Source: a virus (lineage: Duplodnaviria > Caudoviricetes). From it: a stretch of 64,000 nucleotides of DNA. This document shows positions 19,485 through 35,049 of the stretch, in pieces. Both the position numbers and the translations under genes were made by a program. The notes under the pieces were generated by a model, which saw only the letters and a program-made list of their open reading frames with translations, ran no database searches and was not told the DNA's origin. How positions within the stretch are numbered: the stretch's first letter is position 1; each line of letters opens with the position of its first letter. The stretch spans positions 1 to 64,000 of the IMG/VR virus record IMGVR_UViG_2896164284_000005. One strand, 5' to 3'.

Positions 19485-19907
19485 CTAGGTTAGTAGAAAT
19501 AGTTTAGCTTGCTGATATTTCTGCTGTCTTACAAGATCTTTTTCAGTGACTTTTGCTAGACGGCTTAGATCCATGTTATGAGTTAAATCAGCTATCTTGA
19601 CCTTTCTGGCAATCTCGTTAGATTTTACCCTTAAGAGATAGTCTTGGTAACTTTCCCCTTGTCTCTTGGTAATAGCATTAACCGAATCAGCAATCACGCT
19701 ACCAAATAGTTCTGAAATATCATTGAGTGATACTTCTGTATCTTCGACACTATCGTGTAACCACGCTGTTGCAATTACATCATCATTTTCGTTAGCGAGT
19801 AAACCTGCTACAAACGCTAAATGATTGACATAAGGTTGTCCTGCTTTATCTTGTTGATTAGCGTGAATGTGTTGAGCAAACTGTTTTGCTTTAGAAATTA
19901 GCATCAA
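19485..19907 (-). CDS. HD-domain small alarmone hydrolase-like (Mesh1/SpoT-HD)
   Basis: PYVNH, LHDSVEDT, VKIADLTHN motifs. Confidence 0.85.
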   Translation of the reverse strand: MMLISKAKQFAQHIHANQQDKAGQPYVNHLAFVAGLLANENDDVIATAWLHDSVEDTEVSLNDISELFGSVIADSVNAITKRQGESYQDYLLRVKSNEIARKVKIADLTHNMDLSRLAKVTEKDLVRQQKYQQAKLFLLT

Positions 19908-19948: not shown

Positions 19949-20152
19949 TTACTGACCTTTCAAATCTCGTACAAGAATCTCATTTTCTGCATCAAAAATA
20001 GCTTTCTGTTCAGGCGTTAGTTTATGCGGATAATCCTGCCAAAAGTTAAATTCAGTGAATTTATCGAATGAAAAAACCAATTCACCAATTTTTTCATCGT
20101 CATCTTTCCACCAAACTTGATCTTTTTTATGATTTTTATACCAAGAGATCAT
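19949..20152 (-). CDS. Small protein, candidate immunity for MuF C-terminal domain
   Basis: ATGA overlap with muF stop; 67 aa. Confidence 0.65.
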   Translation of the reverse strand: MISWYKNHKKDQVWWKDDDEKIGELVFSFDKFTEFNFWQDYPHKLTPEQKAIFDAENEILVRDLKGQ

Positions 20153-23025
20153 TTTTCTCCCCCTAAAACACCTTTTTTCTGCTTATCCTCAGCAGTATTT
20201 AAATACCCTAACACTTCTTTTAGATCTTGTTTCGCTGATTTAAAGCTATCAACCTCAGCTAATTGTATTTTCCTTTTCAAACTATGCTTTTCAGGATTTA
20301 ACCGACAGCCAAATCGTTTATTTAAAGTCTTAATTAAAGAGCCATATTTATTAAAAGACATCCAACCATTTTTATCTTTTGATTGCAACTCAAGGTATTC
20401 TAAACCACTATCGCTAAGCCGTACAATAGCTGCATGCTTACCGGCTCCTAAATAATACTCCTTACCTAATACCAACTCAGAGTTAAGAATATCAGCTGTA
20501 CCTTTAGCCTCTCTTAATACTTCAAACTCTTTTGCTATCACACCCTTTGCTGAAAATAACGTTCTTACATTACGCTTATAACTGAAAAAGTCACAGCTCT
20601 TACCACCACGATAATCCGTAACATCAAGTCCAATTCTATTACCAATATAAGATAAAGCTAAAGACGCACAAGATCCTTTTGTTTCATCACCACCAGCTAA
20701 CTTAGCAATAATATCATCACTAGATAACTGACTTGAAAGCATTTTGACTGGTCTGTATTCGATATTGTAAGCCTTTAAGTCATCAAGCAATTCAATTGTT
20801 GTTTGGTTCAATGACTGCTCTGTATCTAAAAGACCATTCTCCAATTTTACGCTTAATTGCTTTAACGTCAAAGGTCTACCACTCTGATCTAACATATCCG
20901 CAAAAGTAATTACACCTCTACGCCATAAATCCGCCTTACCTTTACCTAAAACCTGATCTTGTTGCTCTGGCGATTTGCTTTTCAACCAATTTTCGTAGTT
21001 AATCTGCTCTGATACAGGGCCATCTTGGCTTGCTCTTGTGCTTGACGGCATTTCTTCCGCATCAATCCCAAGTTCTTTCCAGCTCTTTGTTACAAGCTGC
21101 AAAATACTGCGACAATTATGTGTTATAATGCCATTAGCAATATACCAGCCATCCTTTGTATCGAGATTGTAAACATGCCCACTGAAATCAATGCTTTTAA
21201 TACTAACAATTTGATCCAATCCTACCAAGCCAAACATTCCTTGGCAGATATTTCTCGCCAATTCAACATCTCTATTTATCGGCTGAAGAAATTGCTCATT
21301 GAAAATGGGATCGATATTCGGCAGAACAAAATCAATATTCCAACTAGTCAAGTGATTTCCATTTACGCTCGTGGAGAAACTATTGATAAAACCGCTCAAA
21401 TTTTCAATGTTAGCCCTGCTGTTATTAAACGGATTTTGAGAGAACAAAGGATCAAAATTCGCAACAAAAGAGAACAGTTGATGTTGGATAATGATATTAT
21501 TTTGTTCAAAAATGGCATTACTAAGAGCGATATTGCAGAGCTTTTCCAACAAGGCATTGGAATCAGAGGTATTACTGAACGTTTCAATTTGTCCATACAA
21601 GCGGTGAAGTACATACTTGCAGAATTCAATTTGAGTCCAAGAAATCGCTCCGAACAGCAATTTGCAAGAATGGCTAGAACGCCCTTTGAAGAACGACAAA
21701 AGTTGGCTGCGAGAGCAAATGAAGTTGCTCGTAATCGCATTGAGCCTAAATCCAAAAAGGAACACACTGCCAAAACTCGTGAGCGCAAAGCTTTGGGGAT
21801 TTCCGAAAATGAAAAATTCATCGCCAATCTGCTCTCCAAACGTGGTATTGAGGTTATCCATCAAAAGGCGATTGGTTGCTATAACTGCGATTTGGCTGTT
21901 TTCCCCGTCGCCGTGGAAATCTTCGGCGGTAATTGGCACTGGACAGGTCGTCATTTGGCGAGATTTGAAGAACGAACTCGCTACTTGCTCAATAGTGGAT
22001 GGCATGTTCTCATCATTCCCGCTAATAATACTTCCCCAATCACGGCTCAAGTCGCAGATTATATTGTCTCCTACATTCAACAAGCCAGATGCAACCCAAC
22101 CGCCCCCCGTGAGTATAGGGTGGTTTGGCGTGCAGGTGAGTTTGAAACCTTTGGAACTCTCAATGACGAGCATTTTTCCATTGAACCACCGTTTACTAAC
22201 ACCAGAGATGAGATTACGGGACAGTACAAGACTATCGCCAGATAAACAACGTGGGTGTAAAGGCGGTCGTTGATAAGGAACATCGTGGTCTATCGGCTTT
22301 TTATCCAAATCCCACATTAACCCATCTCTTAATTGACATACCGTTGATGTTCGAGTGTCTAATGTAGAAAGGTGTTTTTCTCCTGCCAAAATATCAAGGT
22401 TTTCATCTCTTAAGGCTTGATGAGCTTTATCTGCCACTTTAGCTACCGCAGTAATTACTAAGGTTTCAGCGTGTCTGCGAGAGGTATTCATCAAATGCTT
22501 AACATCAGTAATTATTTGGCTTGTTTGCTGACCGTCTAGCAACCCTTGGCGAATAATTCCTTCAAACTTAAAGGCAAAATCATTTCCTTGCTTTGCCCAC
22601 CAATCTGCTAAAGGCGAACCTGCAATAATCGTTGCGGTTTTATTCGCTTTTTGCTTATATTCAGGCACCTGATTAAAAAAATCAAAGCCGACTTCATCAT
22701 TGTAAAGCTGATGAATATGTTGGGTTTCCGCCGTAAAAAAACCGCTTAACTCGTCTTGCGTGTAAGCGGTCATTTCTTGATAGACTTTTGCAACTTCTTG
22801 CTTAAGCTCCTTAAGCAGTGTGTCTAATTGCTTTTTAGGTAAAGCATCCACACCTGCAGCCGCTAAACGATTGAGCAACTCACGTTGTGTTTTACTCAGC
22901 TGTTTCATAACCTGCTGTCTAAGATGTGCATCATAACGAAAATGCAGAATTTTGCGATCAGTCAAGGCGTATGCAATACGACTATTCAGGCTTTGTTTCG
23001 GCTTGTCCTGCGAACTCAAGGTCAT
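20149..23025 (-). CDS. MuF (SPP1 gp7-like) minor head protein with intein and C-terminal toxin-like extension
   Basis: STLDTRTSTVC..DG; PPLHPR|CRS split by a Hint domain; C-terminal GSCAS..GKHAA. Confidence 0.9.
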   Translation of the reverse strand: MTLSSQDKPKQSLNSRIAYALTDRKILHFRYDAHLRQQVMKQLSKTQRELLNRLAAAGVDALPKKQLDTLLKELKQEVAKVYQEMTAYTQDELSGFFTAETQHIHQLYNDEVGFDFFNQVPEYKQKANKTATIIAGSPLADWWAKQGNDFAFKFEGIIRQGLLDGQQTSQIITDVKHLMNTSRRHAETLVITAVAKVADKAHQALRDENLDILAGEKHLSTLDTRTSTVCQLRDGLMWDLDKKPIDHDVPYQRPPLHPRCLSGDSLVLSRNLISGVSKRWFNGKMLVIESSKGFKLTCTPNHPILTGGGWVASGLLNVGDNIICDLSRDWGSIISGNDENMPSTIEQVASSFFKSRQMTTCPVPITAEDFHGDGENSQIAVIATNRLLMDNLNTTFGEQIGDEFFIFGNPQSFALTSFGSVFLFGFRLNAITSNFICSRSQLLSFFKGRSSHSCKLLFGAISWTQIEFCKYVLHRLYGQIETFSNTSDSNALLEKLCNIALSNAIFEQNNIIIQHQLFSFVANFDPLFSQNPFNNSRANIENLSGFINSFSTSVNGNHLTSWNIDFVLPNIDPIFNEQFLQPINRDVELARNICQGMFGLVGLDQIVSIKSIDFSGHVYNLDTKDGWYIANGIITHNCRSILQLVTKSWKELGIDAEEMPSSTRASQDGPVSEQINYENWLKSKSPEQQDQVLGKGKADLWRRGVITFADMLDQSGRPLTLKQLSVKLENGLLDTEQSLNQTTIELLDDLKAYNIEYRPVKMLSSQLSSDDIIAKLAGGDETKGSCASLALSYIGNRIGLDVTDYRGGKSCDFFSYKRNVRTLFSAKGVIAKEFEVLREAKGTADILNSELVLGKEYYLGAGKHAAIVRLSDSGLEYLELQSKDKNGWMSFNKYGSLIKTLNKRFGCRLNPEKHSLKRKIQLAEVDSFKSAKQDLKEVLGYLNTAEDKQKKGVLGGEK
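21121..21129 (+). promoter_or_regulatory. Extended -10 promoter TGTTATAAT for antisense nuclease gene
   Basis: Perfect TGnTATAAT ending 45 nt upstream of ATG 21175. Confidence 0.6.
21175..22245 (+). CDS. Antisense-encoded putative homing endonuclease (3 HTH repeats + Vsr/DUF559-like domain)
   Basis: Repeats I..Y..G.S...I...FN.S...I..IL....I..R; SENE..Q..IG.Y.CD....VEIFGGNWH..R..L...GW.VL; ORF also open from ATG 21118. Confidence 0.85.
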   Translation: MPTEINAFNTNNLIQSYQAKHSLADISRQFNISIYRLKKLLIENGIDIRQNKINIPTSQVISIYARGETIDKTAQIFNVSPAVIKRILREQRIKIRNKREQLMLDNDIILFKNGITKSDIAELFQQGIGIRGITERFNLSIQAVKYILAEFNLSPRNRSEQQFARMARTPFEERQKLAARANEVARNRIEPKSKKEHTAKTRERKALGISENEKFIANLLSKRGIEVIHQKAIGCYNCDLAVFPVAVEIFGGNWHWTGRHLARFEERTRYLLNSGWHVLIIPANNTSPITAQVADYIVSYIQQARCNPTAPREYRVVWRAGEFETFGTLNDEHFSIEPPFTNTRDEITGQYKTIAR

Positions 23026-34674: not shown

Positions 34675-35049
34675 ATGACAGAATTTAAAGATGTAAAGCA
34701 AGCGATTGTAGAAGCACAACTTGCTGCAACGCCAAGAGATAAACTTGTTAATGATATAATGAAAGGAAGTGCCGATCTGCTTTCGGCAAACGATATTATT
34801 ACTCGATTGGGTATTAGTGCTGATGAGTTTATGAAATTAGTCAATTTACCAAACCACTCTCTACGAACGAATGGCGGACTAGGGGCTGCGGTATATGCTT
34901 CCAGAAGAATGTTTGATGCTCATATTGAGTTAATCAATCAAGAGCTAGAAAAGAATATATCGTTCCCTAAACCTGATGTATATATTTTAGGAAAGGCTCG
35001 TTGGAAAAAAGAAACCTTTAAGAAATGGTTAGAAGAACAGTGCAAATAA
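34675..35049 (+). CDS. Hypothetical protein, possibly AlpA/excisionase-like DNA-binding
   Basis: FPKPD..GKARW..W; cI-operon accessory slot. Confidence 0.6.
   Translation: MTEFKDVKQAIVEAQLAATPRDKLVNDIMKGSADLLSANDIITRLGISADEFMKLVNLPNHSLRTNGGLGAAVYASRRMFDAHIELINQELEKNISFPKPDVYILGKARWKKETFKKWLEEQCK

Follow-up and report, generated by a model that had tools for sequence, protein, structure and literature searches.

A candidate extended -10 promoter for an antisense homing nuclease lies within the last codons of an intein in a prophage MuF gene

The window analyzed here is a stretch of 64,000 nucleotides (nt) from a virus of the class Caudoviricetes (IMG/VR record IMGVR_UViG_2896164284_000005, positions 1 to 64,000). 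It contains a prophage head module on the - strand, which comprises genes for the small and large terminase subunits, the portal protein, and a MuF-like head morphogenesis protein. The portal and terminase genes lie upstream of the MuF-like gene on the same strand. The prophage belongs to a low-GC gammaproteobacterium (genome GC of 38.5%), and its closest named relatives are Mannheimia and Pasteurella phages. The MuF-like gene (20149-23025, -) encodes a 958-codon precursor that includes an intein, and the + strand of the intein carries a predicted gene for a homing nuclease. The subject of this work is a short + strand element, TGTTATAAT (21121-21129), which overlaps the last codons of the intein. 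An initial annotation had proposed that this element is a sigma70 promoter for the antisense nuclease.

The MuF-like gene was assigned from its open reading frame (ORF) and a match to Pfam Phage_Mu_F (36.1 bits, cut-off 29.6). In translation, the insert opens with CLSGDS, contains TPNH, and closes with GIITHN, after which a Cys follows. It spans 378 codons, or 1134 nt (21115-22248, -), from Cys1 (TGT, 22246-22248) to the terminal His-Asn (21115-21120), with Cys+1 at 21112-21114. The C-terminal junction (21112-21132, -) includes Ile633 (ATT, 21127-21129), Ile634 (ATA, 21124-21126), Thr635 (ACA, 21121-21123), His636 (CAT, 21118-21120), Asn637 (AAT, 21115-21117), and the Cys+1 codon TGT. The conserved motifs, which we take to be intein blocks A, B, F, and G, include the N-terminal Cys nucleophile, the TxxH of block B, and the C-terminal His-Asn followed by Cys that are characteristic of class 1 inteins. 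The match to Pfam Intein_splicing is stretched over the insert (residues 278-637) and scores 28.8 bits, below the cut-off of 35.8 (E=1.2e-6).

An allele without the intein occurs in related organisms. Contigs from RNA runs of two studies (X5 and X12) carry the same MuF gene at about 95% identity and join position 21111 to 22246, skipping exactly 1134 nt. The MuF gene of Mannheimia phage 1152AP2 also lacks the insert and has 553 codons. By sequence comparison, the insert is a precise in-frame insertion and thus appears to be a discrete mobile unit, and the allele in X5 and X12 appears to be a natural empty homing site. A search of the genome with the N-extein found only one copy of the MuF gene and thus no second copy that could serve as a homing target.

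The predicted antisense homing-nuclease gene (21175-22245, +) nearly fills the intein. Its 356 codons are followed by the stop codon TAA (22243-22245), which is the reverse complement of the codon for intein residue Leu2 (TTA), beside Cys1. The two frames are in complementary register, with each nuclease codon lying opposite an intein codon. In most of 106 clusters of related loci, a TAA or TAG stop is likewise found opposite the Cys-Leu at the intein start. The last ~110 codons of the nuclease (21919-22248) lie opposite the N-terminal splicing domain of the intein with blocks A and B, and the same bases therefore encode two conserved protein domains, one in each direction. Inside the N-extein, about 375 nt beyond the end of the nuclease gene, a terminator-like hairpin followed by a T run is present at 22620-22637 (+). 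This hairpin could end the antisense transcript, but the number of such hairpins in the region is at chance level (3 found, 4.3 expected).

The nuclease protein consists of three helix-turn-helix repeats, which are indicated by Pfam HTH_7 and resolvase-like matches, and a C-terminal Vsr-like nuclease core. Searches with the nuclease sequence alone gave weak matches, including Pfam MTES_1575 (21.6 bits, under the cut-off) and PDB entry 3hrl (E=0.028). In the AlphaFold2 model (pLDDT 87), the best structural matches of the core are I-Bth0305I (3r3p) and Vsr (1cw0/1vsr), each with a probability of 1.00; with the full-length model as query, the E-values for these structures are only 5.5e-3 to 1.8e-2. 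As modelled, the core has a Vsr-like or EDxHD nuclease fold. The nuclease shares at most 47% identity with any relative found, and it retains every invariant residue in an alignment of 19 family members. Among the 201 host-family genomes searched, it is present in 2, one of which is the window's own.

Both reading frames are under selection. The nuclease frame contains none of the three codons whose complements are stop codons in the intein frame. TTA and CTA are absent from its 24 Leu codons and TCA from its 19 Ser codons, whereas the neighbouring genes use TTA for 79 of 199 Leu codons and TCA for 23 of 122 Ser codons. Conversely, in all 106 relatives, no stop codon interrupts the intein frame opposite the nuclease. 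An open intein frame that holds a complete nuclease ORF on the opposite strand identifies the element as an antisense-nuclease intein.

Sigma70 promoters of the extended -10 type (TGnTATAAT) function without a -35 element. The element TGTTATAAT matches this consensus at 9/9 positions and is the reverse complement of the codons Ile633-Ile634-Thr635 in block G (GIITHN). Its position opposite I-I-T was given correctly in the initial annotation, as were the weak GAGA element and the ATG at 21175. The initial annotation also proposed that the same bases encode the splice junction and a promoter; the motif itself spans codons -5 to -3 and lies beside the junction residues His-Asn, not on them. The best -35 match upstream of it, at spacers of 16-18 nt, has 2 of 6 positions, and a generic promoter scan misses TGTTATAAT because it lacks a -35. 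Across the family, no conserved -35 was found on the extein side (mean of ~2.4/6), which fits an extended -10 element located wholly inside the mobile unit. The entire motif of the window is within the mobile element. The only other TGNTATAAT of the window, TGATATAAT (34752-34760, +), is inside a + strand ORF (34675-35049) and is not obviously ahead of a gene.

The significance of the motif was evaluated by comparison with related MuF inteins that also encode this antisense nuclease. The window's nuclease as query retrieved 32 viral contigs and 1 genome contig, and the alignment of 19 nucleases was used to retrieve the best 80 of 558 viral and the best 80 of 386 metagenome relatives. With phage Snoke and the window, this gave 181 loci, all of which carry the nuclease on the + strand. 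A His-Asn-Cys type junction with standard spacing and complementary register was found in 173 of them. The remaining eight (L029, L070, L112, L115, L117, L162, L168, and L177) were left out because of a contig-end cut or odd spacing, and one further locus with a short flank was also excluded. The resulting 172 inteins provide 128 unique 90-nt segments, which form 107 clusters at 80% identity. In Gordonia phage Vivi2, a simple motif search found no standard His-Asn-Cys junction near the nuclease start, and this phage is outside the counts. Positions are given relative to x, the + strand base at which the complement of the Asn codon begins (21115 in the window), and third codon bases were compared with the extein codon usage of each locus.

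The motif is conserved at its silent positions. TANNNT is present at x+9 in 89 of the 128 unique sequences, and the next best offset accounts for 35. Among the hexamers at x+9, TATAAT is the commonest (39), followed by TACAAT (23), and a perfect TGNTATAAT is found at x+6 in 28 of the 107 clusters. The strongest bias is at codon -4, whose third base A specifies the first T of the hexamer (105/127, 25.3 expected, z=19.0). A third base T at codon -5, which corresponds to the A in the fourth position of the hexamer, occurs in 91/128 sequences (38.7 expected, z=10.8). At codon -3, a third base A, which gives the T of the TG, occurs in 59/128 (22.7 expected, z=8.8). The neighbouring codons are at or near expectation: third base C at codon -1 (Asn), 78/128 against 75.6 expected (z=0.5); T at codon -2 (His), 60/128 against 58.6 (z=0.3); A at codon -6, 28/128 against 18.6 (z=2.5); and T at codon -7, 48/128 against 43.0 (z=1.1). 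The junction Asn and His codons thus vary freely at the silent base, and neighbouring silent sites at expectation argue against shared ancestry as the cause of the bias.

The bias at codon -4 is independent of the amino acid encoded. The final A is retained when the residue changes, with ATA used in 42 of 47 cases, GTA in 26 of 38, TTA in 7 of 8, and GCA in 9 of 10. In a same-amino-acid control, 75 of the 93 Ile, Val, and Leu codons at position -4 end in A, compared to 11/105, 16/64, 12/102, and 5/107 at codons -5, -9, -17, and -20, respectively, and 1248/7638 (16.3%) in the exteins. TANNNT is also present in 25 of 41 GC-rich loci (>=60% GC). The bias at codons -3 to -5 is conservation beyond the needs of the overlapping protein. 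A prediction of the initial annotation, that synonymous codon choice would not vary freely in homologs that keep the antisense ORF, is borne out by this bias, which runs toward T-G-n-T-A-n-A-A-T, and its proposal that the antisense nuclease has its own sigma70 promoter gains support. Judged from these comparisons, the silent bases of the motif are a real, selected DNA signal.

A selected signal could have a purpose other than transcription. For example, rare codons might slow the ribosome before the junction, or the silent bases might form a binding site for the helix-turn-helix repeats of the nuclease. ATA, GTA, and TTA are indeed uncommon, as the extein frequency of 16.3% indicates, the nuclease has DNA-binding repeats, and no transcript start was seen in the RNA data, which consist of assembled contigs only. 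However, the preference for GCA among Ala codons at position -4 involves no rare-codon effect, and codon -5 favours the common Ile codon ATT (75/94). Moreover, the three biased bases jointly spell the extended -10 consensus of sigma70 and nothing else obvious, the remaining biased sites are the Shine-Dalgarno sequence and the start codon of the same nuclease gene, and loci without the motif tend to have one slightly downstream. A non-promoter purpose is thus unlikely.

The downstream motifs are found 17-22 nt from the usual offset. TANNNT is present at x+26 in 9 of the 36 clusters that lack the x+9 motif and in 3 of the 71 that have it (p=0.002), and at x+31 in 12 of 36 and 1 of 71, respectively (p=5e-6). 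Phage Aaphi23 (L207), from a related host, carries the same antisense nuclease, but its block G reads VFVSN and does not encode a -10 element; instead, TGTTATAAT is found at x+23 (about 1268-1276), 17 nt deeper in the intein.

The motif might also be a chance by-product of AT-rich Ile codons, with no function, and the nuclease gene might be silent in this prophage. The low GC content of the genome is compatible with such an origin, as is the count of the bare motif in the window, where TGNTATAAT occurs twice in total on the two strands of the 64 kb while shuffled sequences contain 4.50 +/- 1.96. The presence of the nuclease in only 2 of the 201 host-family genomes searched also means that this copy could be a dead end. 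In contrast, the probability of ATT ATA ACA given I-I-T is 0.015 with the codon usage of the neighbouring genes, in which ATA accounts for 7 of 116 Ile codons. A chance origin also conflicts with a family-wide silent-site bias that reaches z=19, and a dead copy conflicts with the retention of all invariant nuclease residues and of two intact frames. This explanation is very improbable.

The sequence between the motif and the nuclease gene provides the other features of a transcription and translation start. From the standard spacing between a -10 element and +1, transcription is predicted to start at the A at 21136 (+), 7 nt past the -10 hexamer. The family shows a weak preference for A at this position (46/128, 24.7 expected, z=5.0). 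The predicted leader (21136-21174, +) is 39 nt long and unstructured. The fold of 21136-21200 has a minimum free energy of -1.6 kcal/mol (z=+2.1), and 199 of 200 shuffled sequences fold at least as well. A folded regulatory leader was considered and rejected on the basis of this fold, as the leader is less structured than shuffled sequences.

A weak Shine-Dalgarno sequence, GAGA (21163-21166, +), is the complement of the Asn-Leu codons in block F (YNLD). The family consensus at this site is GAGG, which is present in 52 of 107 clusters, with GAGA in 13. The final C of the block F Leu codon, which provides the first G of GAGG, is found in 81/127 sequences (30.1 expected, z=11.5). On the opposite strand, the start codon ATG (21175-21177, +) reads as CAT, the His codon of block F at position -21. 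This codon ends in T, which provides the A of ATG, in 102/126 sequences (57 expected, z=9.1). At x+60, start codons occur in 70 of 106 clusters (59 ATG, 9 GTG, and 2 TTG), and 23 more have an ATG two codons later. The choice of ATG 21175 as the nuclease start, already made in the initial annotation, is corroborated by 42 of 106 relatives that have an in-frame stop between an earlier ATG or GTG and x+60. The ORF listed for the window begins instead at ATG 21118, the complement of the penultimate His codon. This start was rejected; it is upstream of the predicted transcript start, and an in-frame stop follows it in the same 42 of 106 relatives. The choice between CAT and CAC for this His codon is at expectation (z=0.3).

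Transcription of the nuclease could also begin at a + strand promoter outside the intein or result from read-through, in which case TGTTATAAT would contribute little. Promoter-like sites with a -35 element are present on the + strand at 19597, 19825, and 20105. The count of such sites is at chance (12 found, 13.0 expected), and these three are in the host gene or in adjacent sequence, which is not mobilized together with the intein. Beside the junction, the extein has no conserved promoter element, and an outside promoter leaves the silent-site bias inside the intein unexplained. An external origin of the transcript is accordingly quite improbable.

The signal is probably a promoter of the sigma70 type that acts without a -35 and serves the Vsr-like homing nuclease, as the agreement of its selected bases with the extended -10 consensus suggests. 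Several observations weigh against this assignment. In the window, the bare motif is without enrichment over shuffled sequences, and the Shine-Dalgarno sequence is the weaker GAGA. TANNNT is missing at x+9 in 36 of 107 clusters, and of the 71 clusters with TANNNT, only 45 retain the TG. The x+31 cases are mostly from one clade with the block G sequence IASHN and represent few independent events. More generally, clusters defined at 80% identity retain some dependence on one another. As an outside control, 401 genomes were searched with Pfam PF14890, which gave 22 places, from which 20 inteins were read. Most of these unrelated inteins represent a single ribonucleotide-reductase intein in which codon -4 specifies His or Tyr. 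Ile, Val, or Leu is found there in only 6 of 20, and 2 of these 6 codons end in A, a sample too small and too related to be used. Lastly, a search for sequencing runs yielded 24 RNA runs, all as assembled contigs with word shares <=0.08 that cannot show transcript starts or strand. Contigs from 4 of the 24 runs were compared with the window and leave 21136-22207 uncovered, which says nothing on nuclease transcription. The matching contigs of runs X5 and X12 carry the intein-less allele, contigs of run X8 cover 20600-20934 only, and no contig of run X1 was placed.

In the proposed mechanism, the intein of 1134 nt within the MuF head gene of the prophage would be a self-contained mobile cassette, from which a Vsr-like homing nuclease is read on the opposite strand, codon against codon. 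All expression signals of the nuclease would be contained within the last 21 codons of the intein. They would follow one another as the extended -10 element TGTTATAAT at Ile-Ile-Thr of block G, a ~39-nt unstructured leader from ~21136, the Shine-Dalgarno sequence at Asn-Leu of block F, and the ATG at His of block F. Because an extended -10 element needs no -35, the sigma70 RNA polymerase of the host could transcribe the nuclease at any site of intein insertion. Such transcription would not depend on the late head operon and would run antisense to it. On balance, blocks F and G may well double as a portable cassette for nuclease expression that supplies promoter, leader, ribosome site, and start codon, with intein residue 2 providing the stop. 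The opposed orientation of the two transcripts, as noted in the initial annotation, suggests that the nuclease transcript might have an antisense effect on the head operon.

The antisense layout has been described before. Full inteins with an anti-sense VSR-like homing endonuclease occur in MuF-like minor capsid proteins of actinobacteriophages, according to the available portion of a recent preprint (bioRxiv 10.1101/2025.01.02.630785). As far as that portion describes them, these inteins share with the window the MuF host gene, an antisense nuclease in a contiguous intein, a Vsr-like core, and possibly the EDxHD assignment. The Gordonia phages Vivi2, Fosterous, and Angelicage, which are named there, are tblastn matches of the window's nuclease. 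The window differs in coming from a low-GC gammaproteobacterial prophage and in the divergence of its nuclease, given above. The word 'promoter' is absent from the main text of the preprint, in the portion available, and neither expression of the antisense gene nor silent-site constraint in blocks F and G is addressed there. A literature search on expression signals of antisense intein nucleases found nothing. While the layout is thus published, the overlay of a promoter, ribosome site, and start on splicing-motif codons is unpublished as far as the literature search reaches.

A related arrangement is found in fractured genes. The accessible text of Dassa et al. (2009; PMC2677866) describes split inteins with a free-standing gene for a Vsr-like or GIY-YIG endonuclease between the halves, and promoter-like elements and hairpins in the nuclease 5' untranslated regions. 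Like the window, these loci associate an intein with a nuclease of a related family that is encoded separately and preceded by signals of its own. However, in the fractured genes, as described in that text, the nuclease is on the same strand, its signals are in non-coding spacers, the promoter-like elements are of the T4 late type, and hairpins sequester the ribosome-binding site. In the window, the intein is contiguous, the signals are in the coding sequence of the opposite strand, the -10 element is of the sigma70 type, and the leader is unstructured.

Among known structures, the core of the nuclease model is closest to I-Bth0305I (TM-score 0.63 on target), which is, in the part of the description available, an EDxHD homing endonuclease from a group I intron within recA of phage 0305phi8-36 (PDB 3r3p; PMC3239194). 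The two proteins share 16-17% identity, and I-Bth0305I is encoded within an intron on the sense strand and contains different DNA-binding modules. Compared to known extended -10 promoters, the predicted promoter of the window has a full consensus match and no -35 but overlaps codons of a gene that is read from the opposite strand.

Antisense homing nucleases of inteins are a recent finding, and their mode of expression has not been addressed. If the proposed arrangement is correct, every signal of a selfish nuclease gene would be hidden in the codons of its protein-splicing carrier. The nuclease could be produced while the prophage is silent or at an early stage of infection, and its transcript could dampen the opposing late head gene. 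Independence from host gene regulation would also explain mobility inside a late structural gene. Such inteins may also yield antisense RNA against a phage late operon. The stretch would combine three layers of information, namely the intein protein, the nuclease protein, and the signals for transcription and translation, with silent-site selection that can be measured. Annotation pipelines miss the nuclease gene because they assign the region to a head protein alone.

Two further features of the locus concern the MuF protein and its surroundings. The C-extein (20149-21114, -) is long, with 321 codons, and the homologous gene is annotated as NAD+--asparagine ADP-ribosyltransferase in some Salmonella phage records. 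An additional C-terminal domain may therefore be present in the MuF protein. A 140-codon ORF (19485-19907, -), located between the MuF gene and the scaffold and capsid genes, encodes a His...HD-type motif, which we take to resemble that of HD-domain phosphohydrolases.

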